This document shows, piece by piece, positions 12,048 to 40,480 of a DNA stretch of 64,000 bases; the first letter of the stretch is position 1, and each line of letters begins with the position of its first letter. The notes below the pieces were generated by a model. It saw nothing but the letters and a program-made list of their open reading frames with translations. It made no database searches and was not told where the DNA came from. Source of the DNA: an uncultured Chloroflexia bacterium (GTDB taxonomy: Bacteria; Chloroflexota; Limnocylindria; Limnocylindrales; CSP1-4); the NCBI GenBank assembly GCA_963766735.1, contig CAVYBU010000006.1, positions 64,001-128,000 of the forward strand, read 5' to 3'. A program made the translations under genes and the position numbers.

Positions 12048-12191
12048 GACTCCTCCATCTTTCCGGCGTACTCGCGCCATCGTGGCTACGCTGCGCTCAT
12101 CCGGGCGCCACCGCATCCCACGCTGCGGGTGAAAACCGAGTGTGCCGAGCCCACGGCTCTGCATCGGCCACGGTGTCGTGGTGGCTCTGGA

Positions 12192-14558
12192 TCATTGTCC
12201 CACGTCCATCCGCGGCCGAGGGGGCAAGCCGGGGAACGGTTCGAGCAGGCCGAGATCGATCGCCTGCTGGACGGCCTCGCTGCGGCTCGACGCCCCGAGC
12301 TTGCCGTAGATCGAGATGGCCTGCGTCTTGACCGTGTGCGGGGACAGGAACATGCGCTCGCCGATCTCCTTGAACGTGAGCGGCGTCGACAGGATCGGGA
12401 GCAGCCGTAGCTCAGCGGGGGACAGCGCAGACGACCCGGCGAGGGCGGTGGACGCATCCTTGAGGCGTGTGCGCATCTCGGCGATGCCCGCCGTGAGGGT
12501 TCCGAGAGCGGGGCGCCTGCGGGCGATCGCTTCGGCTTGGGAGACCACGTTTCGCGCGCCCGCCGGATCGGCGATCGCCAGGTAGGCCCGGGCCAGCTCC
12601 AGGAGGGCACCGACTGCGGACCAGGGCCCGGCGTAGGTGGCGAGCGGGCAGACCAGCTGGGCGCGGACGAGCTCGTCGCGCGCGCGCGCCAGGCCACCAC
12701 GATGGATCGCCACGCGCGCCGCCACGGCGTGGGTCATCAGCGACACGGCGAAGTGGCCGAGTCGAGCGCTCGCGAGCACCCCATGGCTCTCGCGGGCAAA
12801 CTCCTCTGCCGCGCCCCAATCGCCCCGTGCGATCGCGAGGCTTGCCCGGTTCGCCCAGGAGACCATGGCACCCGCCATCCCTCCCGCCGACACGGCATCC
12901 GCGAACGCCGCATCGGCGGTCCCGTCGTCACCAAGGAGCAGATGTGCCGAGCCGAGCAGCGTGAGGGCGTTCGTCCGCCAAGGACTGCCCGGCGCCTCCG
13001 CGGCCACGGCAAACGACGCATTGGCGAGCATGTCCTCCGGTCCGTTCCGGGCCATGGCCGCACGCAGCAGCGCCCTCGATGACTCGAAGGACGCGGAGCC
13101 GTCGCCCGGATCGCCGCTATACGTCGAGTGCTCGGCGATGTCCGCCAGGTGCTCGCTGGCCTCCGGCCGTCCGTTGAGGAGGTGGATCCAGGAACCCGCG
13201 ACCGCCAGCGGAGGCCGCCGCGCAAGGGCGGCGTCGTCAAAGCTCCGCAGCCACCGGTCCAGCTTGTCGCCGTGACCGCCGTAAAGGGTGGGCAGGAACG
13301 TGGACACGACGAGCGCGGCGGCGGCGTCCATGTCGTCGCCTCGCAACGCGTGCTCAACGGCGAGCTCGATGCGGTCACCCGTCGCATACCAGGCCGCCGC
13401 TCGGCGATGCAGCTGCGGCACAAGGTCCGGCTCCCGTCGGGCGAGCTCCGCCTGCAGGAACTCGCGCAGGAGGTTGTGGTAGCGGTAGCTGCCCCCGGGT
13501 CCGCCGACCTCGCCGATGAGCTGGTTGGCCTCCGCGAGCGACTCCAGCCGTGCGGCCGCTCCGGGCAGACCGGTGACGGCCGTCGCGACTTGCGGCTCGA
13601 CGACCTCGAGGATCGAGCTCCTGGTGAGGAGCGCGGTGTCGTCGCCGGTCAGACCCGACAGGAACTCGGACCGCAGGTAGTCGGCTATGTAGTCACCCCG
13701 GTCCCGCGAGCCTTCGAGAAGGCTCGCGGACCGACCCGACCGCTTGCCGGCGAGGGTGACGAGGTAGATGCCCGCAGCCCACCCCTCGGTCCGTTCCGCC
13801 AGCGCCCGGACCTCGTCGGGTATCAGGGGGTGGTCGGCGGCAGTGGTCAAGGCCTCCGTCTCGGCGAGGTCCAGGGCAAGCTCGTCCCGCCCGAGCTCGA
13901 GGAGGTCGCGCCCTGCCCGGAACCTCCCGAAGGGGAGGGCCGGTGTGGTCCGTCCCGCCACCGCCACCTGGAACCCGGCGGGGAGGTGGTCGATGAGCGT
14001 CGCCAGGGCGTCGAGACACGTTCGGTCCACGAGACGGTGAATGTCGTCCAGGACGAGCACCGCCGGCCGGCCGATGCGGTGCATCTCGAACGCGAGACGG
14101 GGCACAGCCAGAGCGACGATCCGCGACTCGGGCGCCGCAATGCCCGATCGGATGGATCCATCGACGGGTTGGAGGCGGTCGATGGCGGCGGCGAGGTAGG
14201 CGAGGAAGACGCTCGGGACGTTGTCGAAGTCGTCGAGCGTCAGCCACCCGACGGGGCGATCCTCGCGCGCCGCCCACTCTGCCAGGAGCAGAGTCTTGCC
14301 GTACCCGGGCGGGGCGCTGACCGAGACGACCGAGGCTCGAGGCTCGGCCATCAGAAGGCCGATGAGCCGGTCGCGCGGGATCGTCCCGGGGCGGGGCGCA
14401 GGCGGGAGAAGCTTCGATTCGACCAGGGGGAAGGAGGGTTGGGAGCGCGGATGCGGCTCGGCGTCCGACGGCAGGCCCGACGCCGGGCGCGGCTCGTAGG
14501 CGTTGGCGACGGTCCGGATCCTCGCTGCGGGCGCGGCTGGCTGATGGACGAGACGCAC
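12192..14558 (-). CDS. MalT-like STAND ATPase / LuxR-family transcriptional regulator
   Basis: ESKLLPP, Walker A APPGYGKT, Walker B LVLDDIH, TEGWAAG, YRYHNLLREFL, C-terminal LuxR HTH; start codon uncertain (GTG 14558 chosen). Confidence 0.88.
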   Translation of the reverse strand: MRLVHQPAAPAARIRTVANAYEPRPASGLPSDAEPHPRSQPSFPLVESKLLPPAPRPGTIPRDRLIGLLMAEPRASVVSVSAPPGYGKTLLLAEWAAREDRPVGWLTLDDFDNVPSVFLAYLAAAIDRLQPVDGSIRSGIAAPESRIVALAVPRLAFEMHRIGRPAVLVLDDIHRLVDRTCLDALATLIDHLPAGFQVAVAGRTTPALPFGRFRAGRDLLELGRDELALDLAETEALTTAADHPLIPDEVRALAERTEGWAAGIYLVTLAGKRSGRSASLLEGSRDRGDYIADYLRSEFLSGLTGDDTALLTRSSILEVVEPQVATAVTGLPGAAARLESLAEANQLIGEVGGPGGSYRYHNLLREFLQAELARREPDLVPQLHRRAAAWYATGDRIELAVEHALRGDDMDAAAALVVSTFLPTLYGGHGDKLDRWLRSFDDAALARRPPLAVAGSWIHLLNGRPEASEHLADIAEHSTYSGDPGDGSASFESSRALLRAAMARNGPEDMLANASFAVAAEAPGSPWRTNALTLLGSAHLLLGDDGTADAAFADAVSAGGMAGAMVSWANRASLAIARGDWGAAEEFARESHGVLASARLGHFAVSLMTHAVAARVAIHRGGLARARDELVRAQLVCPLATYAGPWSAVGALLELARAYLAIADPAGARNVVSQAEAIARRRPALGTLTAGIAEMRTRLKDASTALAGSSALSPAELRLLPILSTPLTFKEIGERMFLSPHTVKTQAISIYGKLGASSRSEAVQQAIDLGLLEPFPGLPPRPRMDVGQ

Positions 14559-14610
14559 GATACACGTGTCGAGCTCGGCCCGGCGAAGTGCCAGATGGAC
14601 CGCCGCCGCC

Positions 14611-14997
14611 TCAGGAACGCGCTGGCGGGTCCGTCCGGCCGTGATTGGACGGATCGTTCTCTTCGAGGGCAGCCTCCACGTCGTAGCCTGCGGCCAGCGC
14701 GATCCTTGGGGCCGCCGAGATGACGCGCGCCGACCCCACGGCACCGGCAACTGCCACGACGACGCCGAGGACGTCCTCGAGCGCTGCTCCGGCCCGCTGC
14801 GCCGCAGCGACGGCAACAAGGTACGACGACTGCGGGGCATCCAGCGCCACGAGGGCCCCGATCCGGAGGAGCGCCTCGGTGCGCTCGTCCAGCCGGTGGA
14901 GGCCCGGGTCCTGTTGGCCGGGGTTCGCCATCGCCCCGATCAAACCGGGATCCCCGATCGTCAGCCGGCGGAACGCCTCTTCGGTGGACGGCATCAC
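14611..14997 (-). CDS. Carboxymuconolactone decarboxylase/AhpD-like protein (no Cys)
   Basis: LDERTEALLRIGALVALDAP...GAALEDVLGV...AVGSAR pattern; RBS GAGGAGGG. Confidence 0.75.
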   Translation of the reverse strand: MMPSTEEAFRRLTIGDPGLIGAMANPGQQDPGLHRLDERTEALLRIGALVALDAPQSSYLVAVAAAQRAGAALEDVLGVVVAVAGAVGSARVISAAPRIALAAGYDVEAALEENDPSNHGRTDPPARS

Positions 14998-15213: not shown

Positions 15214-15768
15214 TCAGTCGTGCTCGTTCCCGGCCACGAACGTCCGGCTCTGGCGTGCCGGCAGCTTCATCCGGTCGGGATCGATGTCATAGCTCCAGGG
15301 CAGGCCGGAGTTCTTCCAGCCGTTCTTCATCCGCATGCCGTCGAAGACGCTCTCGGCGTCCTTGACCTGGCTCCCCTCCATACCGTCGAGGATGTTCCAG
15401 GCATTCGTGAACCCGGCCGCCGCCAACATGTTGATCGCGATCGCGCTGCGGCCACCGGACCGGCACGTGACGAGGATCTTGTCGCCTGTCGCCGCCCAGC
15501 CCTGTACCGCCGCGACGAAATCGGGGTTGAGCTCCCAGCGCAGTGCCTTCTTCTCGGGGTCCCACTCGTACGTCTGGAGCGCGAACGGGATGTTCGTGGC
15601 CATCGGCGCGTGGCCGACGAAGACGAACTCCTCCGGCGTGCGGACGTCGAGGATCTTCAGGCCGGGGTCGGCCTGCCACAGGTCGTAGGCCTCCTTCGCC
15701 GTGACATACAGCCCGAGGCCGGTCTGGCGCGCCGCGGCGATCGTCTCTTGCGGGTGGTTCGCGATCAT
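15214..15768 (-). CDS. Rhodanese-like sulfurtransferase
   Basis: ILDVRTPEEF, GHAPMATNIP, active-site loop CRSGGRS, GWKNSGLPW. Confidence 0.9.
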   Translation of the reverse strand: MIANHPQETIAAARQTGLGLYVTAKEAYDLWQADPGLKILDVRTPEEFVFVGHAPMATNIPFALQTYEWDPEKKALRWELNPDFVAAVQGWAATGDKILVTCRSGGRSAIAINMLAAAGFTNAWNILDGMEGSQVKDAESVFDGMRMKNGWKNSGLPWSYDIDPDRMKLPARQSRTFVAGNEHD

Positions 15769-15828
15769 GGATAGACCCCTTTCTGAAACGGCATGGCGCC
15801 CCTCGGCGCGTGACGAGTCGGTCGTTGC

Positions 15829-17556
15829 TCAACCTGCGGCAAGGCGGGCCTCGATGTGGTGGACGGCGGCATCGACGGTCGGGAACAGGTGGTCTTCACC
15901 GATCTGGTCCAGCAATCCGGTCTTGGCGGCGAACTCCAGGACCGGCTGGTGGACCTCGGCGAAGTCCGTATCGATGCCGCGTTTTCGCAGCCGTCCCACG
16001 AGGCCCTTCAGCATGTCGGAGCTGGTGATGTCCAGGCTGTCCTGCCCGGCGGCGTCGATGAGCACGGCGCGCACCGGCCCATCAGAGTCCTCGAGCAGGC
16101 GCATGATCTGGTCCCGCACCGTCAGGGCATTCGCGTAGTAGAGCTGCGCATCCAGCCGCAGGATCAGGATGCCGGGCACGGGCGCTGCCGCAGGATGCCG
16201 CGTCACGTCGCCGAACGCTCCGGCCTGGTCTGGCATCCTCCCCAGGCGTGAGAGGTGTGGGCGGCTCGATCGGTAGATGATGATGAGCAGTGCGCTCACG
16301 AGGCCGATGAGCATCCCCGGCAGGACGTCGATGAGGATCACGCCCGCGAAGGTCAGCACGCCGAGCGTGAACTCCGTTCGCGACACCAGCCTCGCGGTGT
16401 GCAACTTGCGCGACGCGACGATGTGCCACAGCGCGTGCAGGATCAGCGCTGCGAGGATTGTCTCCGGCAGGTTCGTGAACAGCGGCGTGAGGAACAGGAG
16501 CGTCAGCACGACGGCGGCCCAGGCCACGAGCCCGGAGACCTGTGACCTCCCCCCGGCCCCGTCGTTTACAGCCGACGGCGCCATGCTGCCGCCGGCAACC
16601 TGCCCGCCGAACAGGCCGGTGGCGAAGTTGACGGCGGCATAGGCCCCCAGCTCCGTGTTCGAGTCGATCTCGTAGTCGTGCTTGTCGGCGTACTCGTGGG
16701 CAACGCCAAGAGACTGGCTGAACGTGACGAGCAGCATGGCGATCGCCGGCAGGACCATGATCGGCAGGACGGACAGCGGGACCGCCGGCACGGCGGGGAT
16801 CGGCAGGCCCTGGGGCAGCACGCCGACCACCTCCACGCCATGGGTGGCGCTGAGGTCGAGGACGGAGCTGACGACGATCGACCCGAACAGAACGATCAGC
16901 CCGGCGGGGATCTTCCGGTTCCAGCGCGGCAGGAGAACGAGCAGGGCGAGCGCGGCAATGCCCAGGACAAAGGTGAACCAGTTGGCGTCCGGCAGCTCAC
17001 GCACGATGCCGATCAGCTTCTCGACCGTGTTGCCGGCCGGTTTCTCCACGCCCAGGAGCTTGTTGAGCTGCCCGACCATGACGTATACGGCCAGGCCGGT
17101 GATGAAGCCGTCCAGCACCGGCTTCGAGAGGAACTGGGTGACGAAGCCGAGGCGCGCCAGCCGGGCGACCAGGAACACCGCGCCGACGACGAGGACGAAG
17201 GCGCCCACGTACTGCTGGTAGAGCGCAGGGTCGATGGGCGACCCGCTGGCAACCACGCCGGCCGCGACCATGACGGCCGTCACGGAGGACGCGATCAGGG
17301 CCGCCGACGCCGAGGTCGGCTGGACGAAGACGTGCCGCGAGCTGCCCAGCACCGCATAGACGAGCAGCGAGCACACCAGGGTGTACAGGCCGAACTGGGG
17401 CGGAAGCCCGGCAACACCGGCATAGGCCATCGATTCGGGAACGATGAGTCCCCAGACCGTCAGCCCGGCGATCGCGTCAGCGGTCAGCCAGCTCCGATCG
17501 TAGGCCGGCAGCCACGCGAGGATCGGGATGCTCCGTTTGAGTGTCGGGGTCGTCAC
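15829..17556 (-). CDS. sulP: SulP/SLC26 anion permease with STAS domain (paralog 1)
   Basis: DAIAGLTV..VPESMAYAGVAGLPP, FLSKPVL, STAS LRLDAQLYYANA and DSLDITS. Confidence 0.92.
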   Translation of the reverse strand: MTTPTLKRSIPILAWLPAYDRSWLTADAIAGLTVWGLIVPESMAYAGVAGLPPQFGLYTLVCSLLVYAVLGSSRHVFVQPTSASAALIASSVTAVMVAAGVVASGSPIDPALYQQYVGAFVLVVGAVFLVARLARLGFVTQFLSKPVLDGFITGLAVYVMVGQLNKLLGVEKPAGNTVEKLIGIVRELPDANWFTFVLGIAALALLVLLPRWNRKIPAGLIVLFGSIVVSSVLDLSATHGVEVVGVLPQGLPIPAVPAVPLSVLPIMVLPAIAMLLVTFSQSLGVAHEYADKHDYEIDSNTELGAYAAVNFATGLFGGQVAGGSMAPSAVNDGAGGRSQVSGLVAWAAVVLTLLFLTPLFTNLPETILAALILHALWHIVASRKLHTARLVSRTEFTLGVLTFAGVILIDVLPGMLIGLVSALLIIIYRSSRPHLSRLGRMPDQAGAFGDVTRHPAAAPVPGILILRLDAQLYYANALTVRDQIMRLLEDSDGPVRAVLIDAAGQDSLDITSSDMLKGLVGRLRKRGIDTDFAEVHQPVLEFAAKTGLLDQIGEDHLFPTVDAAVHHIEARLAAG

Positions 17557-20323: not shown

Positions 20324-22027
20324 ATGACGATCCCGGGCGTGCAGGCTGTCCGAACCTACCAACGCGCATGGCTGTCGAAGGACATCGTCGCGGGGCTGGT
20401 GCTCGCGAGCCTGCTGGTCCCTCAGGGCATGGCCTACGCGGAGCTGGCCGGGCTGCCTGCGATCACGGGTCTCTACACGTCCGTCCTGTGCCTGGTCGGC
20501 TACGCGGTGTTCGGGCCGTCCCGGATCCTCGTCCTCGGCCCGGACTCGGCGCTGGGCGGGATGATCGCCGCCACGGTCCTGCCGCTCGCGGCCGCCAACG
20601 GTGACCCGTCCACCGCCGTCGCCTATGCGTCCGTGCTCGCGCTGATGGTGGGCGCGTTCATGCTGATCGGGGCCCGCGCCGGTCTTGGCTTCATCGCCGA
20701 CCTGCTCTCCAAGCCGACCCAGATCGGCTACATGAACGGGCTCGCTCTCACGATCTTCATCGGCCAGCTGCCGAAGCTGTTCGGCTTCTCGACCGACGCG
20801 AGTGGCCTGATCGAGGAGACGCAAACCTTCGTGCAGGGTCTGGCCGCAGGCGAGGCCGTGCCCGCCGCGGTCGGCATCGGGTTGCTCAGCGTCGCGCTGA
20901 TGGTGATCCTGGGCCGCTTCCTACCGAAGGTGCCGGCCGTGCTGGTGGCGGTGATCGTCGCGATGGCGCTGTCCGCGGGCCTGGATCTTGCCGCGAGCGG
21001 GGTCAGCGTGGTTGGCGTGCTACCCAGCGGACTGCCGCCGTTCACCATCCCCAGGATGGGACTGGAAGACCTGCCGCTGCTGCTCGCGGGTGCCCTGGGC
21101 ATCGCAGTGGTCTCGCTTGCCGACACGATCTCGGTCTCGTCGATCTTCGCCGGGCGAAGCGGGCAGGAGGTGCACGCCAACCAGGAGATGGTCGGGGTCG
21201 GCGCCGCCAACATCGCGGCCGGACTCTTCACCGGCTTCCCGATCAGCACGAGCTCATCGCGGACTGCGGTCGCGGAGCGGGCCGGGTCGAAGACCCAGCT
21301 GACGGGTCTCGTCGGTGCCGGGGTGATCCTCCTGATGCTGGTGTTCCTGCCCGGCCTGATGCAATGGCTCCCGCAGCCCACCCTCGCAGCCGTCGTGATC
21401 GTCGCGTCGATCTCGCTCGCCGACATCCCGGCGTGGCGCAGGCTGTGGCGACAGCGCAAGACCGAGTTCTGGCTGTCGTTGGCGGCGTTCCTGGGCGTGG
21501 CGCTCCTCGGCATCCTGCCGGGCATCGCCGTGGCGGTGACCCTGTCGATCCTGTGGGTGTTCCTGCAGGCGTGGAATCCGTACCGGACAACACTCGTCGA
21601 CGTCCCGGACGTCCCCGGCTACCACGACATCCGGATGTACCCGGAGGGTGAGCAGCTGCCGGGTCTCGTCATCTATCGCTTCGACGGCCCGCTCATCTTC
21701 GCCAACGCCAATACCTTCAGGAACGAGGTCCGGCATCTGCAGCACGCGGATCCGTCGCCCAGGTGGATCATCGTCGCTGCCGAGCCCATCACCTCGCTGG
21801 ACACGACCGCGGCGGAGATGCTTGAGGAGCTCGACAGAGAGCTCGACGCGAAGGGCATCAACCTCGTATTCGCCGAGATGAAGGACGCGGTACGCCAGGA
21901 GATCCGCCATTACGGCATGGACTGGCTGGCCAACCGCGACGCGTTCTACCCGACGATCGGCGCGGCGGTGAAGGCCTACCGCCAGTTCGCGGGGATCCCG
22001 AAGCCCGGCCGCCACTCCGGACCGTAG
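20324..22027 (+). CDS. sulP: SulP anion permease with STAS domain (paralog 2)
   Basis: DIVAGLVL..VPQGMAYAELAGLP, VLGPDS, SSSRT, STAS YRFDGPLIFANA; TATGCT -10 before ATG. Confidence 0.93.
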   Translation: MTIPGVQAVRTYQRAWLSKDIVAGLVLASLLVPQGMAYAELAGLPAITGLYTSVLCLVGYAVFGPSRILVLGPDSALGGMIAATVLPLAAANGDPSTAVAYASVLALMVGAFMLIGARAGLGFIADLLSKPTQIGYMNGLALTIFIGQLPKLFGFSTDASGLIEETQTFVQGLAAGEAVPAAVGIGLLSVALMVILGRFLPKVPAVLVAVIVAMALSAGLDLAASGVSVVGVLPSGLPPFTIPRMGLEDLPLLLAGALGIAVVSLADTISVSSIFAGRSGQEVHANQEMVGVGAANIAAGLFTGFPISTSSSRTAVAERAGSKTQLTGLVGAGVILLMLVFLPGLMQWLPQPTLAAVVIVASISLADIPAWRRLWRQRKTEFWLSLAAFLGVALLGILPGIAVAVTLSILWVFLQAWNPYRTTLVDVPDVPGYHDIRMYPEGEQLPGLVIYRFDGPLIFANANTFRNEVRHLQHADPSPRWIIVAAEPITSLDTTAAEMLEELDRELDAKGINLVFAEMKDAVRQEIRHYGMDWLANRDAFYPTIGAAVKAYRQFAGIPKPGRHSGP

Positions 22028-22196
22028 CCGGTGCGCGGCCCGGAGCCGGGCCGCCACCTCGGCCTGGAGCAGGCCCGCGGGGTGGAGTGGCACGGTCCGC
22101 GGGACCGGCGCCGGACATCCGAGGGACTTGCGCCGGGCAGGTGACACAGAAACGCCCGGCCGCACGCATGTGCGACCGGGCGTCGGATTGCCGGGG

Positions 22197-22601
22197 TCAG
22201 GCGGCCGGCGGCTCGGCCAGGTCGAACTGGGCCTTGATGTCGCTGCTGTTGAGGTACCAGATGATGAGCAGGGGCATGAGCGACATCCCGAGCCCGATGC
22301 CGGTGCCGGGGTACTGAAGCATGTAGAGGATCGCCGAGAACAAGGCCAGGCCGGCCACGACCATGGCCAGCATCCAGGCCCAAGGGCGCATCGACCACAG
22401 GCCGACCGCGGCCGCCAGCCAGAGGACGCCGCCGAGGACCGAGAGCCAGCCCCAGAGCGCGGCCGTCTCGAACGCCGGCAGGTCGCCCAGGGCACCGAAC
22501 CAGTCGAAGCCGATGAGCCGGAGCCCGAAGAACAGCCAGGCGAAGCCGGCGAGTGCGGCAAAGAAGCCGATGACCGAGATGAGAATGGGCGGGTTCTTCA
22601 T
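22197..22601 (-). CDS. Small 4-TM membrane protein (DUF2127/DUF7144-like)
   Basis: 134 aa; GLWSMRPWAWML...YLNSSDIKAQF; RBS GGGAG. Confidence 0.7.
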   Translation of the reverse strand: MKNPPILISVIGFFAALAGFAWLFFGLRLIGFDWFGALGDLPAFETAALWGWLSVLGGVLWLAAAVGLWSMRPWAWMLAMVVAGLALFSAILYMLQYPGTGIGLGMSLMPLLIIWYLNSSDIKAQFDLAEPPAA

Positions 22602-22746
22602 GCGAGTTTCTCCCTCACGAGTCGTGGTTGCGAGTGCATTGGGCTGATGTCGTGGGCTTCGGGGTCCGAGCGGGCGATATTCCCTCCGCTTCTGGGATGT
22701 CGTTCACTTGCCTTCACATCATTGCGCGCAATGCGTGCGAATACAA

Positions 22747-25654
22747 CTATCCACCGGCACCCGCGCCGATGCCCGCCTGCTGGGTGGCCTGGTGCACCGC
22801 CTGCTCGTCGGCCTGGCTCATCGGCTTGAGGTCGAAGACGACGTTCCGCAGGGTGCCGGTGAAGGCGTACGGCGCCTTGTCCTCGTAGGCGTCGTCCACG
22901 ACGCCGCCGTTGTCGCGACCCATGTCCATGCCGGCGTAGGTCGTGAACAGCATGGAGCAGGTGCGGTCGAGGCGACCCTCGCCGATCTGCTTCCCGTTCG
23001 CCCAGAGGGTGACGCCGCCGCCGGAGCCCGGCTTCGGCTCGTCGGCCTCGAACAGCATCTTCACCAAGACGTCGCCGGTCGGGATCGGCTCGGCCGAGAC
23101 CTGCTTGTACGTCTCGATGCCCAGGAACTGGTACGTGTGGTTGAGGTGGCCCTTCTCATCCACCCAGAGCGAGAAGCCACCGATGAAGTCGGCGAAGGCG
23201 CACAGGACGCCCTCGGCGCCGGCCTCGGGCACGTGGATGTCGGCCTCGATGGAGTACGACCGCCCGTAGATCCGTGGGATCACCGTGGTCGAGACGTTCT
23301 GGACATCGCCCGCGAAGGTATGGCGCGTGGCCGTGGGCATCGGGGGCAGGATGCCGAAGAACACGGCCATGCCGCCGAGCAGCGGCAGCGCGCGGTTGCG
23401 CTCGGCTTCCTTCCAGAACAGCTCCCGCATCTCGGCGAGCTTCTCGGGCTGCTCGGCCGCCAGGTCGTGGGCCTGGCTGAAATCGTCGGGCAGGTAGTAC
23501 AGCTCCCAGGAGTCCTGGTCGGGGTCGTACCCGCTGCCCGGCCTGAACCTGGCGAGCGTCGCCGGCGAGAAGTCCCACGGCAGCTTGTCCAGCCGGGCGC
23601 ATGCCCACCAGCCGTCCTTGTAGATGGCGCGGCTGCCGTACATCTCGAAGTACTGGACCGTGTGCCGCTCCGCGGCGCCCGGGTCTTCCAGCGTGTACGA
23701 GAAGGGCGTGCCGTCCATCGGCTCCTGCTCGATCCCGTCCACCACGGTGGGCTCCGGGATGCCGACCAGGTCGAGGACCGTCGGCGCGATGTCGATGCAG
23801 TGGGTGAACTGCGTCCGCAGATCGCCCCCGCTCTTGATGTGCCCCGGCCACGCGATGACCATCGGGTCGCGGTCGCCGCCGAGGTGGCTCGCCATCTGCT
23901 TGCCCCACTGGAACGGCGTGTTCTGGGCGTGCGCCCAGGCCGCCGCGAAGTGAGGGGCGCTGTGGAAGCCACCCAGGCCCTCCAGGCCGCCGAACTTCTC
24001 GATCAGCTCCAGCTGCTGCTCGGCGTCGAGCACGACGCCGTTGAAGAACGTCGTCTCGTTGAAGGACCCGGTGATCGTCCCCTCCATCGAGGCGCCGTTG
24101 TCGCCCCAGATGTAGATGACCAGCGTGTTGTCGAGCTCGCCCATCTCCTCGACCGCGTCGACGAGGCGGCCGACGTTCCAGTCGGTGTTCTCGGAGAAGC
24201 CGGCGAACACCTCCATCTGGCGGGCATACAGCTTCTTCTCGGCGTCGCCCAGGGTGTCCCACGCGGGGTACGCCTCGGGGCGCGGGGCCAGGTCGGTCTC
24301 CGGCGGAACGATCCCGAGCTTCTTCTGGCGCTCGAGGGTGCGGTCGCGGTAGGCGTCCCAACCGTCGTCGAACTGGCCCTTGTACTTGTCCGCCCACTCC
24401 CTGGCGACGTGGTGGGGGGCGTGCGTCGCACCGGTCGAGTAGTACAGGAACCAGGGCTTCTGGCGGGTCATGGGCCCGCACGGCGTGCAGCCACTCGACG
24501 GACTTGTCCGTGATGTCGTCGGGGAAGTAGTAGAGCTTCCCATCCTTGCCCTCGGGCACGCCGACGACCGAGTTGTCCTGGGTGATGATCGGGTCGTACT
24601 GGCCGGCCGCCCCGGTCAGGAACCCCCACCAGTGGTCGAAGCCCCAGGCCTGCGGCCAGTGCTCGAACGGCCCCGCGGGGCCCATCTCGCGCCCCGGCGT
24701 CATATGCCACTTGCCGAAGCCGCCCGTGATGTAGCCGTTCTCCTTGAGGATCCTGGGCAGGGCCGTGCAGCTTCGCGGCCGCGTCCCCGTGTAGCCCGGG
24801 AACGGACCGGGGAACTCCGCGATCCCGCCCATGCCCACGCGGTGGTGGTTGCGTCCGGTGAGAAGCGCCGCGCGGGTCGGCGAGCAGACGGCGGTCACGT
24901 GGAAGCGGTTGTAGGTCAGACCCATCTGCTGGATGCGCGACAGGGTCGGCGTCCGCAGCTCGCCGCCGAACGTCTCGGGACCACCGAAGCCGGCGTCGTC
25001 CACGAGCACGATCAGGACGTTCGGGGCCCCATCCGGCGCCTTGGGCCCGGGGATCATCGACCAGTCGCCGACGGACGTGTCCATCGTCCGGCCGACCACG
25101 CCCCCGAAGTTCCGGTCAGGGATCGGCAGCACGGTCCGATCCTGGCTGAACTTGCCCATCGCCTCGGCGAGGGAATCCTTCAAGGCGGCCGTGCCCGACT
25201 TCTCCGTCTGGACAACGGAGCGCACGAGCGCCCCGGCCAGGATCTGCTGGACGGCGAGGGCCTGGTCCTCCTCGAACATCGCAAGGATGGCGGCGGTGCC
25301 GGGCTTGAGCGCCTCGCCGATCTTGTCGTGGAGGCCCGTCTCCATCTTGTGCTTCGCGAAGCGCCCGGCGATTCCGCCCGCCGCGGCCCCAACGACGGTG
25401 GCTGCGAGCAGCGGGGGAGCGGCAAGACCCACGAGGAAGCCGACCGAGCCGCCGTAGCCGAGCCCCTTGCGGCCGAGGTGGTCGCCGGTCTGCTGGACGA
25501 TGACGTTGTCGTCCTTGTCGTGGCTGACGAGGATCGCGCCCTCGATGCTGACCTTCTTCGCCTTCACCGCGGCGACGAGGTCGTCGAATTCCTTCGTGGC
25601 GGTGTCGACGCTCGGGTACCCCGCAACCAGGACGTCGGTCAACTCGTGAGCCAT
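22747..25654 (-). pseudogene. Arylsulfatase (Cys-type) with N-terminal DUF1269 domain; split by a 1-nt frameshift near 24465 (real lesion or sequencing error)
   Basis: APNVLIVLVDDAG, CSPTRAALLTGR, GKWH in ORF 23156..25672; continues as QKPWFLYYSTGATHAPHH, GDNG, QYFEMYG in ORF 22747..24543. Confidence 0.88.
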
Positions 25655-25860
25655 GAGGTCGTCTCCCGTCAACGCTGTCCCGCCCAGCCCGCTGCCCAGG
25701 ACGGGAGCTGATCATCATCGACAAGCCGGGCAGGGCCCTCCTGCCAGGCGCCGCAACCAGTCCAGATTACATCCCTGATCCGGGGCATCGAACATCGAAC
25801 CCCGCGGATGATGCGGCGACCTGGGAGCGGGCCCCTGGCGCACCGGGACCGACTGATCGG

Positions 25861-26529
25861 CTACCGCCCCGGCCTGGATGCGCGGACCCGGTTCTGACCC
25901 AGGCGGATGAGCGGCAGCGCCAGCATCAGGGCGGTGGCCACCACGTAGAGGCCGACGGCGACGGGCGGAGCGACCAGGGCGCATGCGACCGCGATGATCC
26001 ATATCCCGATCGAGATCCTTCGTTGGCGGGCCATCGCCGCCAGCTCCTCATCGGCGACGTCGTCGATCAGCAGCGTCCGTTCACGAGCAAGGTGGGCCAT
26101 CAGGAAGGTCAGCAACAGCGATGCGACCAGCACGTTGATCCCGTAGATGAGCACCGCGACCTGGACATCGGGGCCGGCCAGGTGGCTCACCATCAGGCTG
26201 GTCGTGAACGGGAGCACGGCCACGAAGAGCAGGAACAGGAGGTTGAAGCTGAACGCGAGGGTGTCGCCGCGCTTCATGAGCCTCGTCATCCGGGTATGGG
26301 TGATCCAGTTGCCGCCGATGAAGGCGAAGCTGATGAGGTAGCCGAGGTACTCCGGCCACTGTTCGACCAGGGTCGGGAGCAATGGCTCGGGTCCGACCGG
26401 GACCGTCAGCTCCAGCACGAGCAGGGTGATCGCGATCGCGAACACGCCGTCAGAGAAGGCGTTGAAGCGGTCCAGAGGCAGTTCGTCGGCCGGGCGGGGC
26501 GCTCCGGCGCCGGAGTCTCGATCAGACAC
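25861..26529 (-). CDS. TMEM175/DUF1211 family potassium channel
   Basis: RFNAFSDGVFAIAITLLVL signature, W..H, LPF; RBS GGAGGAG before GTG. Confidence 0.9.
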   Translation of the reverse strand: MSDRDSGAGAPRPADELPLDRFNAFSDGVFAIAITLLVLELTVPVGPEPLLPTLVEQWPEYLGYLISFAFIGGNWITHTRMTRLMKRGDTLAFSFNLLFLLFVAVLPFTTSLMVSHLAGPDVQVAVLIYGINVLVASLLLTFLMAHLARERTLLIDDVADEELAAMARQRRISIGIWIIAVACALVAPPVAVGLYVVATALMLALPLIRLGQNRVRASRPGR

Positions 26530-26567
26530 TGTCGCTCCTCCATCTCGCCGGCCTTCCAGCAACGAGG

Positions 26568-26598
26568 CGAGAACCCGGGCTGGGCGCCCGGGTTCTCG
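26568..26598 (-). terminator. Intergenic hairpin (13-bp perfect stem)
   Basis: CGAGAACCCGGGC-TGGGC-GCCCGGGTTCTCG between two co-oriented genes; no U-tract, so a terminator role is unproven. Confidence 0.5.
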
Positions 26599-26648
26599 AT
26601 CCTGTCAACCGGACCCGGGGGCCCAGCCGGCCAGTTGCTCCGTTGATC

Positions 26649-27620
26649 CTAGGCCTGGGCGTCCTCGGCTTCCTCGATCGCGACCTCCTCGGCGTCGCGC
26701 GACATGGAGACGACGTCCTCGGCCTCCTCGATCGCGACCTCTTCGACCTCGCGGGCGAGCGACACGACGTCCTCCGCCTCCTCGATCGCCGATTCCTCGA
26801 CGTCCGCGGACAGCGCCACGACTGCCTCCGCCTCCTCGACGGCGGCCTCCTCGACCTCGATGGCCAGCGCCACGACCTCCGCGGCCTCCTCCATGGCGGC
26901 CTCTTCGATCAGCTCGGCAGCGAACAGCGTGTCGATGACGTCCTCGGCGGCGGCGTCCTCGATCGCCAGCGCCATTGCGACGACGTCGGCGGCCTCGGCG
27001 ATGGCGGCCTCCTCGACGAGCTCCGCCATGACCAGGGTCCGGGCGATGTCCATCGCGGCCATCACCTTGATGGCCTCGGCCGCCTCGATGGCCTCCTCGG
27101 CCTCCATCCTGACCCGCAGCTCCTCGCCGACGAGGGCCAGGGCGTCGGGCGAGATCATCGCCTGCATGAGCGAACGCCCCCCGGCCTCGCCGATCGCGTC
27201 GCGCAGGCTTGCCGCCCAGTGGTGCTCGATCACGAGGATCGCGGCCGCCCCGCCGGCGGGAATGCTCTCGGCAAGCTCCTTCATGCGGTCCACGCCGAGG
27301 CCGGCGTCCCGCTCGGCCACGGCAAGCGCGCCCAGGATCTCGCCCTCGACCATGCCCTCGACGCCGCCCTCGTGCAGGCCGATGAGGCCGCCCGCGATCG
27401 CGCCCAGGCGCATCCGCTCGTTCTCGGACAGGTCGGTCATGTGCATCGAGTTCTCGATGCTGCCGTGCCTGTCCTTCTGGACGAACAGGATGTCCACGAT
27501 CCGGATCACGCCGCGCTTCCGTGCCCGGCGCAGCTCGGCCATGATCTTGCCGGTGGCCTCGAACTTGTCGAACCCGATCACGAACACCTGGATCGGGCCC
27601 GTCACGTGCTTCTCGCTCAT
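26649..27620 (-). CDS. DUF6325/DUF1269-like protein with acidic 18-aa repeat tail
   Basis: GPIQVFVIGF, IRIVDILFVQK, AILVIEHHWA N-domain; ~7-8 repeats like VAIEEAEDVVSMSRDAEE. Confidence 0.8.
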   Translation of the reverse strand: MSEKHVTGPIQVFVIGFDKFEATGKIMAELRRARKRGVIRIVDILFVQKDRHGSIENSMHMTDLSENERMRLGAIAGGLIGLHEGGVEGMVEGEILGALAVAERDAGLGVDRMKELAESIPAGGAAAILVIEHHWAASLRDAIGEAGGRSLMQAMISPDALALVGEELRVRMEAEEAIEAAEAIKVMAAMDIARTLVMAELVEEAAIAEAADVVAMALAIEDAAAEDVIDTLFAAELIEEAAMEEAAEVVALAIEVEEAAVEEAEAVVALSADVEESAIEEAEDVVSLAREVEEVAIEEAEDVVSMSRDAEEVAIEEAEDAQA

Positions 27621-27693: not shown

Positions 27694-27759
27694 TCGAGCC
27701 CGGGCCGACGATCGACCCGGGCTCGATGATTCGCGTGTTGCGGTGCCCGGATCAGCCGG
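27694..27759 (-). repeat. Structured intergenic element, copy 2
   Basis: TCGAGCCCGGGCCGACGATCGACCCGGGCTCGA plus CCGGATCAGCCGG at 27747-27759; matches 11325-11393. Confidence 0.75.
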
Positions 27760-28378
27760 CGGCGGGTGCCCCACCCTCAGCGGCATCAGCGGCGGCCGCG
27801 GCGGCCTTGATCGCGTCCGCGGCTTCCTCGTCAACCGGGACCGCCTTGACCTCCTCGGCGTCCGGCATCTTGAGCCTGACGTCCTCGACGGCCGTTGCCG
27901 ACACGAGGCACAGGATGCCCGACGTGCCGGGGGTGATGACGTCGGTCAGCTGCTTCTCGACCTCCACCCGGTGGTAGAGGTTGCGGGCCTTGCCCGCAGC
28001 CGCGCCGGCGAAGCCCAGCGCAACGGCACCGCCGACGATCGTCGCCGGCAGGAAGATCCCGGCGACCACGCCGCCCACGATGCCCCACTTGAGGCCCTTG
28101 CGGGTGCTGTGCTCGGTCATCTTCTGGATGTGGATCCGGCCGTCGGCGTCGGCCTTGGCGACGAGGACGCCGTCGATCTCGAGCGAGCCGTCGATCTCGG
28201 CCGACTGGAGGTCCCGGTAGACACCGACGGCGGCGTTGGCGTCCGCGAAGCGGGCCACGATGAGGGCATGGTTGCCCTCGGCGGCGATGGCGGCCTCGGC
28301 GATCACGCCCTTGTCATCGGCCACCTGGGCAGCGACGACGACGACGTCCTCGGCCTGGGGGGTGGTCTCTTCGGTCAC
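27752..28378 (-). CDS. DUF1269 family protein
   Basis: IDGVLVAKADADGRIHI, glycine-zipper GLKWGIVGGVVAGIFLP...GAAAG, PGTSGIL; RBS AGGAGG. Confidence 0.82.
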   Translation of the reverse strand: MTEETTPQAEDVVVVAAQVADDKGVIAEAAIAAEGNHALIVARFADANAAVGVYRDLQSAEIDGSLEIDGVLVAKADADGRIHIQKMTEHSTRKGLKWGIVGGVVAGIFLPATIVGGAVALGFAGAAAGKARNLYHRVEVEKQLTDVITPGTSGILCLVSATAVEDVRLKMPDAEEVKAVPVDEEAADAIKAAAAAADAAEGGAPAAG

Positions 28379-29722: not shown

Positions 29723-31885
29723 GTGACGGCACCGGCGGTACGGACCCCCGCGGTCATCCCCGACTGGCTGGTCAACCTCGCGGCCCTCGGCTGGCGGATG
29801 ATCGTCATCGCGGCGCTCATCGTCGTGCTGTGGCAGCTCAGCGGGCTCCTGTGGACGGTCTCCGCCTCCATCGCGATCGCCATCGTCATCGCGGCCGCTT
29901 TCGCGCCGTTCGTCCTGCGGCTGCGCGCCCGCGGTCGATCGCAGGCTGCGGCGGCGGGGATCGTGTGGGTGGTCGCGATCGCCGTCCTCACCGGCGCTGC
30001 GTTGCTGCTCTCGTTCGCCTTGCTGCCGTCCATCGGCGAGCTGGTGACCAGGATCTCGGCCGCCATCGCGGAGGTCCAGGCACGGGTCGTCGAGAACGGC
30101 GTCCCACCGGACGTCGCGGCGTCTGCTCGAGCGGCCATCGATGCCGCCCGCGAGGCGATCGGCGCGGCCGTGGGCGACATCGTCGCGGCGGCCGGAGGCG
30201 TCATCACCGTCCTGGTCCTCGCCTCCTTCCTCGTGTTCTTCTTCCTGAAGGACGGCGACAGGGCCTGGATCTGGGTCTTCCAGGCCGTCAGCGACCAGAA
30301 GCGGGAGCGAATCACCGAGGCCGGTGAGGACGCGCTGGCACGCGTCGGCGGCTACCTCCGCGGAACGACGATCCTGTCCGCGATCATCGCGCTCACGGAC
30401 CTCGTGTTCATGTGGGTTCTGGGCGTGCCGCTCGCGGTGCCGCTGGCCGTCCTCGTCTTCTTCAGCGGCTACATCCCGTACTTCGGCGGCATCGTCACGA
30501 CGATGCTCATCCTGCTGGTCGCGTACGCGACCCTCGGCCTGGGACCGGTCGTGGTCTTCATCCTGCTGATCGCCATCCGCAACGCGATCCTCGGCTACGG
30601 CATCCGCCCGGCCGTGTATGGCCGAACCGTGAGCATCCATCCCGCACTCGTCCTCATGGCGCTGCCCGCGGGGTTCGCGCTGGCCGGGGTCGTGGGCCTG
30701 TTCGCGGCAGTGCCCGTGACGGCCGTCCTGCTCGCAGTGGCGGCGGCGACCGTGGCGATCGTTGACCCCGGTCCGCGCCCCGAGCTCCCTTCCCTGGTGC
30801 CGGCCTGGCTCGACCGGGTCGCACAGTGGAGCTGGCGCCTGCTGGTGGGCCTGGGCCTGATCACGCTGATCGTGCTGGTGATCGTTGCGGTGCCGATGGT
30901 CGTGGTCCCCATCGTCATGGCCACGATCCTCGCGGCCACGCTGCACCCCCTGGTTCGCGTCCTCGTCCGGCGCGGCCGGGGACGCGGGCAGGCCGCCGCG
31001 ATATCAGTGGGCGGGGGGATCCTCGCGGTCACCGCGGTCATGGGGATCGCCCTGATGTCGCTGGTGGGCCAGGCCGGGGCCATCGGGCGGGAGGCCTCTG
31101 GCGGCGCCGGGTCCGTGAGCGATGCGGCGGGCGGCACCCTCGAGATCCTCACAGCCGCGGTGGCCACCGGGGGGACCGACCTGGTGACGACCGCGGCCTC
31201 CATCGTGTCCGACGTGGGCGCGCTTGTCGTGGTCATCGTCCTGAGCGCCCTGCTGTCGTTCTACTTCCTCAAGGACGGCGGACACCTGTGGAGCCGGACC
31301 CTTGCGCGTGTCCGACCCGAGGCGGCAGGCGCGATCGACGAGGCCGGCAGCCGTGCGTTCGAGGTGCTGAGCGGGTACATGATCGGGACCGGCGCCATCT
31401 CGCTGGTGGGCGCGGCCAGCCAGCTGGTCATCATGCTGGTCCTGGGCATCCCGCTCGCGGTGCCGATCTTCGTCCTCTCGTTCTTCCTGTGCTTCATCCC
31501 CTACATCGGCGGCTTCATCTCGACCGGCATCGCGCTGCTGGTGACCATCGCCGTCGGCGTCCCATCGGACATCGTGATCATGGTCATCTGGACCCTCGTG
31601 TTCAACATCGTCACCGGCAACGTCGTCTCGCCGCTCGTCTACGGCAAGACGGTCCACCTGCACCCCGCGGTCGTGCTGGTCGCGATCCCGGCCGGAGGAG
31701 CCGTCGCCGGGATTGCCGGCATGTTCCTGGTCGTGCCCCTGATCGGCGTTGTCGCCGTGACCTGGCGCACAGTCCTCGCTGTCATCGGGATGCCGAGGAT
31801 CCCGCGCGGGGCGGCGGTGCCGGCGTACGCCGCGGCCGCCCCTGACCTCGTTGGTCCCGAGGCGGAGCCGGCCGAGGGCGGCTGA
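29723..31885 (+). CDS. AI-2E family transporter with two tandem AI-2E domains
   Basis: FFFLKDG / IPYFGG / YGRTVSIHP in the first half, repeated as FYFLKDG / IPYIGG / YGKTVHLHP in the second. Confidence 0.9.
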   Translation: MTAPAVRTPAVIPDWLVNLAALGWRMIVIAALIVVLWQLSGLLWTVSASIAIAIVIAAAFAPFVLRLRARGRSQAAAAGIVWVVAIAVLTGAALLLSFALLPSIGELVTRISAAIAEVQARVVENGVPPDVAASARAAIDAAREAIGAAVGDIVAAAGGVITVLVLASFLVFFFLKDGDRAWIWVFQAVSDQKRERITEAGEDALARVGGYLRGTTILSAIIALTDLVFMWVLGVPLAVPLAVLVFFSGYIPYFGGIVTTMLILLVAYATLGLGPVVVFILLIAIRNAILGYGIRPAVYGRTVSIHPALVLMALPAGFALAGVVGLFAAVPVTAVLLAVAAATVAIVDPGPRPELPSLVPAWLDRVAQWSWRLLVGLGLITLIVLVIVAVPMVVVPIVMATILAATLHPLVRVLVRRGRGRGQAAAISVGGGILAVTAVMGIALMSLVGQAGAIGREASGGAGSVSDAAGGTLEILTAAVATGGTDLVTTAASIVSDVGALVVVIVLSALLSFYFLKDGGHLWSRTLARVRPEAAGAIDEAGSRAFEVLSGYMIGTGAISLVGAASQLVIMLVLGIPLAVPIFVLSFFLCFIPYIGGFISTGIALLVTIAVGVPSDIVIMVIWTLVFNIVTGNVVSPLVYGKTVHLHPAVVLVAIPAGGAVAGIAGMFLVVPLIGVVAVTWRTVLAVIGMPRIPRGAAVPAYAAAAPDLVGPEAEPAEGG

Positions 31886-35424: not shown

Positions 35425-36866
35425 TCAGCCCGTGGCCCCGTGGCAGGTCTTGGTCTTGCGGCCGCTGCCACAGGGACACGGGTCGTTGCGCCCCGCCTGC
35501 GCCACCGCCGTGCGGAGAGCTGCCGCTTCGCCGGCCAGGATGCCCATGGCCTCGTCCGCGTAGCGGCCCTGTCCCAGCAGCGTCGCCATCACCCGCATCG
35601 GCCGGTCGATGTGAGTGAAGAAGGACTTGTAGCCCGCGCACAGGTGGTTGAGCCCCGGCTCGCCGTCCGGGGTGTCGATGAAGCGGTTGCGCGGGCATTC
35701 CCCGTGGCACGCGAACCGCACGGGACACTCGCGGCAGTAGCGAGGCAGCGTGTCCCGCTTGTCCGTTCCGAACGTGCGTTGCGCGGGCGACGCGACCATC
35801 TCCAGCAGGTGCTGTCGCGGATGTTGCCCAGGAGGTAGCGCGGCTCGACGAAATGGTCGCAGCTGAAGACGTCGCCGGTGTGCTCCACCGTCAGCGCGTT
35901 GCCGCATGTCTCGCCGAAGATGCAGACCGCGGGCGGGGCACCGACCCACGAGGCAAGCGCCGCATCGAAGATCTGCACGAACACGGTGCCCACGTCGCGC
36001 GCGACCCACTCGTCGAACACGCTCGAGAGGAAGCGGCCCCAGCCGTCCGCCGTGACGGAGCGTGAGGTCACCAGGCTCCCGTCGAGCGTGTACAGCGGCC
36101 GCACCTCGCGCCCAGTGGTGCCCCAGCCGGCATCGGCCACCGGCAGCGACTCGGGCGTGGCGCGCTCGACGATCGGGATGAACTGGAGGTATCGGGCCCC
36201 GACCTCGTCGCGGAAGTAGCGGTACACCTCCGCGCCCCGGTCCTGGTTCGCCTCGTGCACCGTGCACAGGATGTTGACGTCGACGCCCTGTTCCGCCATC
36301 AGCCGCGCGGCGGCGAGCACCCTGTGATGGGTGGCCTTGCCGCCCTTGTCCACGCGGTAGCGGTCGTGGATGTCGGGCGGGCCATCCATCGAGAGCCCGA
36401 CCAGGAACCGATGCTCCCGGAAGAACGAGCACCAGTCCTCGTCGATCAGCGTGCCGTTGGTCTGGATCGTGTGCTCGACCTGCTGGCCAGGCTTCCGGTA
36501 CCGCTCGACCAGCTCGATCGAGCGCCGGAAGAAGTCGAGGCCCATCAGGGTGGGCTCGCCGCCCTGCCAGGCGACGGTCACGTTCGGGCTCTCGTGGGAC
36601 TCGAGGAGCTGCTTGACGTACAGCTCCAGCAGATCGTCGGCCATCCGGAACGCGGAGCCCGGGTAGAGCGCCTCCTTGGACAGGAAGAAGCAGTAGGTGC
36701 AGTCGAGGTTGCACACCGCGCCCGTCGGCTTCGCCAGCAGGTGGAAGCCCGGCGGCGAGCCCGCGGGCCGCGGGTCGGGCAAGACGGGACCCGGCGCGGG
36801 GCCGGCACCGGGGCCAGAACTCCCGGTCAGAATGCCGTCGCGGGTGAGGGGGCTGCTGGGATCCAC
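35425..36866 (-). pseudogene. Anaerobic sulfatase maturase (radical SAM/SPASM, C-terminal SEC-C); 1-nt frameshift near 35812
   Basis: AKPTGAVCNLDCTYCF, WQGGEPTL, IQTNG, CDHFV in ORF 35589..36971; CRECPVRFACHGECP and GRNDPCPCGSGRK in the frame ending at 35425; start approximate. Confidence 0.88.
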
Positions 36867-37017
36867 GGGCCGGGTGATCTCCCTTCCTGGGGCATGGCGC
36901 GCATGGCGGCGAGGGGTCGCCGCCGGGGCTTCACTTCGGCCGGGTGAGGCAGGCCCGGACGGCGGGCACATATGATGTCAGGGACGGGCGTCTCCGGCGT
37001 GTGATGGAGGGGAGTTC

Positions 37018-37800: not shown

Positions 37801-37805
37801 GGCTG

Positions 37806-40403: not shown

Positions 40404-40480
40404 CGCGGACAGCGGACCCGCGTGCGATGATCCCTCAACCGAACCCCGGGCATGACCCGGGAGGCAATCAGGAGACACCC

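Follow-up and report, generated by a model that had tools for sequence, protein, structure and literature searches.

The window analysed here, a 64,000-nt stretch from an uncultured Chloroflexia bacterium (positions 64,001 to 128,000 of the forward strand of contig CAVYBU010000006.1, assembly GCA_963766735.1), carries on its minus strand a gene in which a DUF1269 module is joined to a formylglycine-type arylsulfatase and a C-terminal domain (Table 1). The ATG at 25654 (25654..25652) starts a frame that contains IEGAILVSHDKD, GLGYGGSVGFLVGLAAPPLLAATVVGAAAGGIAG, LKPGTAAIL, DRTVLPIPD and CSPTRAALLTGR without a single stop between them; it was favoured over the TTG at 25672, since orthologues begin MA(D/H)xLTDVLVAGY. 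Pfam places DUF1269 (PF06897; 38.5 bits, cut-off 26.9) at residues 68-151 of this frame and the first half of Sulfatase (PF00884; profile 1-164) at residues 211-398. The second half (profile 161-301), together with SGSH_C, lies in the overlapping frame 22747..24543, and the two halves score 102.8 and 111.4 bits (cut-off 25). The G+C content at third codon positions (GC3) of the downstream frame is 0.94. An earlier note, made from the sequence alone, had described DUF1269 as running in frame into an arylsulfatase upstream of a frameshift, and the presence of both Pfam domains in one stop-free frame bears this out. As the domain junction (residue ~172, nt ~25139) is located ~675 nt upstream of the frameshift, the frameshift does not create the fusion, which had also been the view of the note. 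Its remark that no Sec or Tat signal is visible stands as well: judged by eye, the protein has no N-terminal hydrophobic leader. No Rfam family was found in the window, and a promoter scan of 22000..26700 returned none; the three terminator-like sites in that region all fall inside coding sequence.

Table 1. Features of the fused gene and its candidate maturase (positions in the window; residue numbers refer to the fused protein)
Feature	Position	Strand	Basis
Fused gene: DUF1269 module, formylglycine-type arylsulfatase and C-terminal domain	22747..25654	minus	968 codons read through; Pfam; colinear with 968-aa orthologues
Shine-Dalgarno-like GGGAG	25663..25667	minus	8 nt 5' of ATG 25654
DUF1269 module, residues 1-172, equivalent to a whole stand-alone DUF1269 protein	25139..25654	minus	Pfam PF06897; alignments; AlphaFold2 secondary structure
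Glycine-zipper hairpin, residues 64-97	25364..25465	minus	Kyte-Doolittle; conservation
Junction and conserved sulfatase leader, residues 169-209 (FSQDRTVLPIPDRNFGGVVGRT...)	25028..25150	minus	13 of 41 columns invariant (20 fused proteins)
Sulfatase catalytic domain, first part, residues 210-397, with DDAGFG metal-site residues	24464..25027	minus	PF00884 profile 1-164; aligns to 1hdh/4cxk from chain residue 4
Formylglycine signature CSPTRAALLTGR, residues 257-268	24851..24886	minus	C257, S258, P259 and R261 invariant, T260 nearly so (20 fused proteins)
Frameshift: four bases CCAG at codon 398 where orthologues have one codon	24460..24463	minus	DNA alignment with six orthologues; protein alignment
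Sulfatase catalytic domain, second part, residues 399-749, +1 frame relative to the start	23407..24459	minus	PF00884 profile 161-301, SGSH_C; PAS alignment to residue 749
C-terminal domain of ~220 aa, residues 750-968, family unassigned	22750..23406	minus	beyond the PAS alignment; unnamed Atlas clusters
Anaerobic sulfatase maturase (radical SAM)	35592..36977	minus	NCBIfam TIGR03942, E 1.5e-112, 376 bits (cut-off 349); stop-to-stop frame

The fusion proved to be neither unique to this genome nor confined to its phylum, being common to hundreds of soil bacteria and mycobacteria. Using residues 1-190 as the query against proteins of 532-1694 aa, with 8000 targets scored, at least 837 long proteins matched the N-domain at E<=1e-3; 119 of the 120 matches listed carry both PF06897 and PF00884, and 110 of these 120 are 966-993 aa long. 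Several fused proteins already bear the source name 'arylsulfatase A-like enzyme/uncharacterized membrane protein'. With a Mycobacterium locus as its starting point, a second search gave 122 matches, and both domains are present in 117 of the 120 mycobacterial and nocardial matches listed. We also scanned genomes, taking one per species: 565 of the 595 matched stretches encode relatives, and 80 loci were kept, with 22 labelled Chloroflexota, 53 Actinomycetota (among them Fodinibacter, Nostocoides, Terrabacter, Longivirga, Arthrobacter, Pedococcus, Nocardioides, Rhodococcus, Mycobacterium, Thermoleophilia and Solirubrobacterales) and 5 otherwise-labelled metagenome-assembled genomes (MAGs). The N-domain stands at the front of the sulfatase match in all 80 loci unless cut off by a contig end; the matches begin at query residues 1-11, with contig-end exceptions in L022, L041 and L065, plus L011 and L063 at the 3' end. 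Among genomes, the closest relatives come from MAGs of uncultured Chloroflexia, with 87-88% identity. The ratio of non-synonymous to synonymous substitution rates (dN/dS) is 0.14-0.35 in the N-domain and 0.05-0.09 in the adjoining core. Chloroflexota and Actinomycetota, mycobacteria among them, thus keep the two parts fused in frame, and the fusion is under purifying selection.

These distributions also settle the concern, raised in the earlier note, that the fusion might be a singleton that arose by loss of a stop codon between two genes. The match is one open frame throughout in 77 of the 80 loci (L008, L050 and L074 are broken), both domains recur in nearly every match listed in the two protein searches, and the linker between the domains is among the better conserved stretches. 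Protein searches, genome loci and open frames all refute such an artefact, no point in its favour was found, and we give it virtually no credence. The results support the fusion being genuine and old.

The reading frame of the window copy is not intact, as it runs out of frame after residue 397 owing to one surplus base. The surplus base is absent from the six orthologues compared, and we therefore rejected a programmed frameshift. Whether the window copy is a very recent pseudogene or the product of an assembly error appears about equally likely. The first alternative, in which the frameshift is genuine and leaves the fusion without function in this genome, draws on the single surplus base relative to six orthologues, on the three nearest database proteins (P0002, P0003 and P0009; 90-92% identical), which are likewise out of frame, each at a different site, and on dN/dS in the C-terminal domain, which is somewhat higher in comparisons with the window (0.22-0.26) than in controls (0.08-0.19). 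Moreover, none of the 43 further open reading frames of the window holds a split Pfam domain. Just 3' of the frameshift, however, dN/dS is 0.12-0.19 against 0.115-0.145 in controls, so any decay would be very recent, and the many out-of-frame fragments among database relatives, with 3 of 80 loci broken, would also fit indel errors in GC-rich assemblies. Weighing both sides, we place a functionless pseudogene slightly below an even chance. Out-of-frame versions of the gene are common among its closest database relatives (P0002, P0003, P0009, P0124-P0142 and others; loci L008, L050 and L074). They bear Arg/Pro-rich tails and fall into clusters of their own, by which the apparent diversity of 'DUF1269 proteins' is inflated.

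The enzymatic part of the gene conforms to a known class. The motif CSPTRAALLTGR agrees with the signature of type I sulfatases, C/S-x-P-x-R followed by xxxLTGR, and by family profile and signature the gene is assigned to the type I (formylglycine) sulfatases, with hydrolysis of sulfate esters as the predicted activity. The core (residues 210-749) aligns to chain residues 4-519 of the Pseudomonas aeruginosa arylsulfatase (PAS; 1hdh, 4cxk) with E-values of 5e-65 to 7e-66, and both enzymes have the Cys-type CxPxR signature; PAS, at 536 aa, lacks the DUF1269 module and the C-terminal domain of ~220 aa. The sole Pfam-type match of that C-terminal domain is to Laminin_G_3, below threshold (E 0.04). 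It ends in a tail of ~24 aa (...ALHxxxxxxxxGxGAGG; last ~24 codons, 22750..22821, minus strand). A candidate formylglycine-making enzyme of the maturase family expected for a type I sulfatase (TIGR03942) is encoded in the same window, ~10 kb away, and likely makes the formylglycine of this sulfatase.

Among the fused proteins of Actinomycetota are a 969-aa 'sulfatase [Mycobacterium tuberculosis]' (P0314, a cluster of 3014 sequences) and the 'Arylsulfatase AtsB' of M. shinjukuense (P0277). The window protein and the 969-aa M. tuberculosis protein, which we take to be Rv3299c, are colinear and 64% identical over 970 columns. Because of this identity and colinearity, and because the Pfam architecture is the same, we assign the gene to the AtsB type: it appears to be a Chloroflexota member of a widespread family of arylsulfatases built of three modules in ~967-970 aa. 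It differs from the mycobacterial proteins in that the window copy is frameshifted and in that it comes from a GC-rich organism whose nearest relatives are uncultured Chloroflexia MAGs. In the literature, the passages available of PMC3675115 count AtsB among five M. tuberculosis type I sulfatases without a known substrate, a table row of PMC5423352 reads 'Arylsulfatase AtsB, Rv3299c', and a table row of PMC11329110 lists AtsB in a BCG transposon screen under rifampicin below the minimum inhibitory concentration. Our literature search found no AtsB paper that mentions an N-terminal DUF1269 part in its accessible passages, and no paper treating 'DUF1269' and 'sulfatase' together.

A different picture of the N-terminus emerged when the last 500 residues were used as the query and candidates were restricted to 275-875 aa, a range that excludes full fused proteins. 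This search gave 5561 matches, and the 120 listed all lack PF06897. Twenty-seven of them begin with M, reach 760 aa or more and contain the junction motif. The module swap point lies directly before DRTxLPIPD: sister proteins start, or end their signal peptide, just before this motif. Eight of the 27 (P0456, P0460, P0462, P0475, P0480, P0481, P0495 and P0509) have a leader that, judged by eye, resembles a Sec signal peptide, with a basic start, 12-16 hydrophobic residues and a small-x-small site, and that ends before the motif. Four more (P0478, P0484, P0490 and P0498) have merely 5-12 residues in front of it and are called leaderless here. Of the remainder, 2 start at the linker MGKF, 3 are of other kinds and 10 start inside the second DUF1269 half; we read these 10 as partial or mis-called fused genes. 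The signal-peptide and leaderless sisters are ~800 aa long, share the same DRTxLPIPD motif and show 70-76% identity over the C-terminal 500 residues, or over the full alignment with P0001. They differ from the fused proteins in having another N-terminal module or none, and the signal forms also lack the C-terminal tail, which is present in 9 of 9 fused forms and in 6 of 6 leaderless or other forms shown, against 0 of 8 signal-peptide forms.

A careful maximum-likelihood tree was computed for the region from the motif to the end (43 rows, midpoint-rooted; the fused row P0082, which has no motif, was dropped). In this tree, the 8 signal forms make up a single clade (support 100/100) that is sister (100/99) to 13 fused proteins including that of the window, and the leaderless forms appear at three places among fused ones. 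The label 'fused' requires 4 changes; not one of 200 bootstrap trees fits a single change, and the midpoint root has fused forms on either side. On the simplest view, with the root not established, the fusion is old, disappeared on several occasions and in one case gave way to a signal peptide. With the signal-peptide forms placed within the fused ones, the N-terminal slot would seem to serve for addressing. By sequence, one enzyme core appears to occur with interchangeable front ends of three kinds, namely a DUF1269 hairpin, a signal peptide or nothing.

To characterize the front end found in the window, we compared it with DUF1269 proteins that occur alone. An exhaustive search with residues 1-190 yielded 1027 representatives at E<=1e-3. 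Because stand-alone DUF1269 proteins of 171-193 aa align to residues ~3-170 at 31-45% identity, the module is a complete DUF1269 protein and no fragment. The stand-alone proteins (PF06897) appear to follow the same glycine-zipper and ferredoxin-like plan with no enzyme attached, and the nearest Atlas clusters of the module are DUF1269 (score 0.94). The likeness to the stand-alone DUF1269 protein at 27752..28378 of the window, noted earlier, is real but distant (26% identity over 126 columns, E 1e-8, BLASTP). Regarding other DUF1269 fusions, seven database proteins examined with Pfam gave no evidence: six with a C-terminal DUF1269 have no second known domain, and P0224, with a long N-terminal extension, matches no family at all.

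Within the module lies a predicted hydrophobic hairpin built on GxxxG repeats. Its first arm carries G64, G68, G72 and G76, its turn is P80-P81, and its second arm carries G89, G93 and G97. Basic residues flank it on both sides (R62 and K63 before, R98, K101 and K103 after), and the PP turn is uncharged. It is the only hydrophobic stretch in the 968 residues, with a Kyte-Doolittle 19-residue maximum of 1.94 at residues 71-89; the usual membrane threshold on this scale is 1.6. Pfam glycine-zipper membrane families occur as side matches on relatives of the module. Across 20 fused proteins, the hairpin has an entropy of 0.55 bits, compared with 1.00 and 0.85 in the module flanks and 0.60 in the catalytic domain, which makes it the most conserved part of the module and as well conserved as the catalytic domain. 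A locus from a Solirubrobacterales MAG (L018:8001-10808) keeps both DUF1269 halves with the hairpin gone, and may represent a natural deletion variant or an assembly fault.

The module was modelled with AlphaFold2 using 34 sequences, giving a mean predicted local distance difference test score (pLDDT) of 57.9 and a predicted template modelling score (pTM) of 0.52. The model contains a strand at 6-13, a helix at 16-31, strands at 37-45 and 51-57, an unmodelled region at 61-111, and then a helix-strand-helix-strand-helix succession to residue 167. A Foldseek search against the PDB placed the trimeric, PII-like protein CutA1 on top (3ahp_B; probability 0.92, E 0.019), with numerous further CutA1 entries, GlnK (2j9c), PstA (4d3h) and CPII (5d4p) ranked below it. 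These ferredoxin-like fold matches are weak, with E-values of 0.019 or worse and template modelling scores normalized to the target of 0.45-0.55 on a low-confidence model, and they go along with no sequence similarity, as PDB sequence searches with the N-domain, alone and as a profile, found nothing credible (best profile E 3.4). The proline-separated, two-armed glycine zipper is plain in the window sequence itself, while the model shows the alpha/beta flanks and leaves the hairpin unmodelled. In a preprint (10.1101/2024.07.07.602159), the one paper found to carry the identifiers COG4803, IPR009200, PF06897, DUF6325 and PF19850, stand-alone DUF1269 is portrayed as a ferredoxin fold of the CutA1 or NikR kind with a GlyZip helical hairpin set into it, and two stand-alone DUF1269 proteins are placed next to ccyA in Microcystis. 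That description was reached independently and agrees with the hairpin-in-ferredoxin-fold arrangement proposed here.

Neighbouring genes were compared across the 80 loci (mean flank 13.4 kb), using tblastn with the neighbours found in the window. A DUF6325-like gene occurs in 24 of 80 loci (10 within 1.5 kb on the same strand; 20/80 by clustering and Pfam), the maturase in 20 (7 within that distance and orientation; 24/80 by clustering and Pfam) and a SulP permease in 18 (5; 20/80 by clustering and Pfam). In the loci of Terrabacter ginsenosidimutans, Pedococcus cremeus and Nocardioides sediminis (L021, L043 and L045), for instance, a DUF6325 gene follows the fused gene ~70 nt downstream and a maturase gene ~2 kb downstream. 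Less frequent are a LuxR-type AAA regulator (11/80, 3 close by), DUF7144 (4/80, 2 close by), TMEM175 (2/80, none close by) and stand-alone DUF1269 (1/80, none close by). The links to maturase, DUF6325 and SulP thus recur, whereas those to the window's two upstream DUF1269-like genes and its TMEM175 channel do not. Given the small number of such genes per genome, we infer that the frequencies are above chance. The earlier note had cast DUF1269 as a membrane-targeting or assembly tag that recruits the sulfatase to a scaffold of DUF1269 and DUF6325 proteins. The first half of this proposal gains from the conserved hydrophobic hairpin and from a slot that elsewhere holds a signal peptide; recruitment to a scaffold is backed by the neighbourhood only, where DUF6325-like genes are present in 24 loci and stand-alone DUF1269 in a single one.

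Among the neighbours in the window, the 323-aa protein of 26649..27620 (minus strand) has the DUF1269 layout (hhalign against the N-domain profile: probability 89.5, E 2e-6) with a less hydrophobic insert; 4.6 copies of a 54-nt tandem repeat at 26660..26908 encode its acidic C-terminal repeats (EEAxxEEAExVV...). A TMEM175-like potassium-channel homologue (25861..26562, minus strand; PF06736, E 8e-25) separates the fused sulfatase from the two DUF1269-like genes. Against the DUF6325 protein of 11592..12191, the N-domain profile gave a weak hhalign match (E 0.006, probability 5.9); this gene stands beside that of a large LuxR-type AAA regulator (12195..14939; both on the minus strand, together 11592..14939), 10 kb from the sulfatase. 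The window also holds three SulP permeases, at 15217..17556 (minus), 20324..22027 (plus) and 37437..40400 (plus), one of which adjoins a rhodanese-domain gene (15217..15828). Taken together, the SulPs, the sulfatase and the maturase look like a sulfur or anion island.

How the module might act is best considered with these elements in view. We lean, by a modest degree, towards a tether: a glycine-zipper hairpin in a ferredoxin-like domain would hold the enzyme at the membrane, on its cytoplasmic face. On this proposal, DUF1269 would be a small ferredoxin-like alpha/beta domain split by the two-armed hairpin, which would dip into the cytoplasmic membrane from inside and leave both domain halves in the cytoplasm. 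Radical-SAM sulfatase maturases act in the cytoplasm; the enzyme would be matured there and become a membrane-tethered sulfatase facing the cytoplasm. There it would free sulfate from esters lying at the membrane or close to it, the neighbourhood being one in which SulP anion transporters abound. Entry from the cytoplasmic side is suggested because the hairpin is flanked by two halves of one small domain and by basic residues on both sides, because there is no leader, because the C-terminal tail is common to leaderless forms, and because the maturase is cytoplasmic. Since the hairpin is conserved far beyond what a plain anchor needs, it probably also packs against other helices, either of its own copies or of a partner. 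The substrate and the reason for tethering, be it membrane-borne sulfate esters or coupling to a transporter, are matters of speculation. Human steryl-sulfatase, whose catalytic domain matches that of the window enzyme (1p49, E 8.9e-21), is held in the membrane of the endoplasmic reticulum (ER) by a hydrophobic helical hairpin of two antiparallel helices. It may serve as a functional precedent for tethering, by analogy rather than homology of the anchors: the steryl-sulfatase hairpin is an insertion inside the catalytic domain of an enzyme facing the ER lumen, whereas here the hairpin is part of a separate N-terminal module that would face the cytoplasm.

A number of observations weigh against a tether. 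The PP turn splits the hydrophobic stretch into two arms of ~16 residues each, short for a full membrane span; the AlphaFold2 model, poor as a whole, shows no helix at residues 61-111 (pLDDT 30-39), and no Foldseek match of the module model in the PDB reaches E<=1e-3. The 936-aa orthologue L018 does without the hairpin, and the frameshifted window copy may lack expression. As for the slot, the 4 leaderless forms could be mis-called starts, midpoint rooting leaves an ancestral fused form unproven, and the N-domain tree (quick method) is poorly resolved, with 4 changes of which well-supported branches force only 1. Finally, the contrast between tail and signal peptide comes from one clade of signal forms and counts as one evolutionary event. 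Short arms and conservation in excess of anchor needs would both suit a regulatory or oligomerizing CutA1/PII-like domain, in which the hairpin is T-loop-like or packs helices within an oligomer that is soluble, with the enzyme free of the membrane. Such a domain would also account for the best fold matches being CutA1, GlnK, PstA and CPII, and for the soluble-looking paralogues, DUF6325 and 26649..27620, that share the layout with a less hydrophobic insert and recur beside the gene. Yet those fold matches are all weak and come from a model of low confidence, the stretch lies above the Kyte-Doolittle membrane threshold, glycine-zipper membrane families turn up on relatives, and sister enzymes hold a localization signal in the same slot. 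We consider a purely soluble module unlikely.

Membrane insertion could also take the opposite orientation, with the hydrophobic stretch as a signal-anchor that displays the sulfatase domain outside the cytoplasmic membrane. The closest non-fused sisters are predicted to be exported by a signal peptide, and many bacterial sulfatases act outside the cytoplasm. A single span, however, would split one alpha/beta module across the two sides of the membrane, and the basic residues on both flanks with an uncharged turn between them, the missing N-terminal leader, and a C-terminal tail shared with leaderless forms and absent from exported ones all argue against it, which leaves it very unlikely in our view. 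A further reading goes beyond an anchor and sees in DUF1269 an oligomeric module akin to CutA1 and PII, with glycine-zipper hairpins that come together in the membrane. Joined by SulP transporters and by the soluble paralogues, DUF6325 and the protein type of 26649..27620, it might form a membrane-bound unit for salvage or sensing of sulfate esters, of which mycobacterial AtsB-type sulfatases would be the enzyme arm and stand-alone DUF1269 the enzyme-free core. This extended scheme is conjectural, and we rate it as quite unlikely.

Further domain combinations occur in the window and its related loci. The SulP permease of 37437..40400 (plus strand) has a STAS domain and then PASTA repeats in one stop-to-stop frame (Pfam PASTA, E 1.3e-22), with an NCBIfam PknB_PASTA_kin stretch at residues 741-932; it is unusual for an anion transporter to be joined to a domain that senses the cell wall. 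At 40340..42655 (plus strand), a 'Phage_holin_4_2' domain with four transmembrane segments is fused to an ABC1 kinase, and in 10 related loci (e.g. L053:11499-13631) the same domain is fused to a Phosphodiest enzyme of the alkaline-phosphatase superfamily; Phage_holin_4_2 is thus another membrane module in front of differing enzymes. An AI-2E family transporter of ~720 aa at 29723..31885 (plus strand) contains two AI-2E stretches, apparently fused after a tandem duplication, while 8 related loci have AI-2E genes of the single kind.

The fusion of DUF1269 with a sulfatase is real but not new: databases already label both domains, and a large sulfatase family is built this way as a rule. The window gene is one more, broken, member of this database-known but unstudied family. 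What we did not find in print are the three interchangeable front ends on one enzyme core and the membership of the mycobacterial AtsB type in the hairpin class; the module-swap pattern and the AtsB link are useful leads, not a discovery. Were the enzyme indeed tethered by the hairpin to the membrane's inner face, the search for substrates would narrow to membrane-bound or freshly imported sulfate esters, and DUF1269, a family of no known function, would gain its first testable role.

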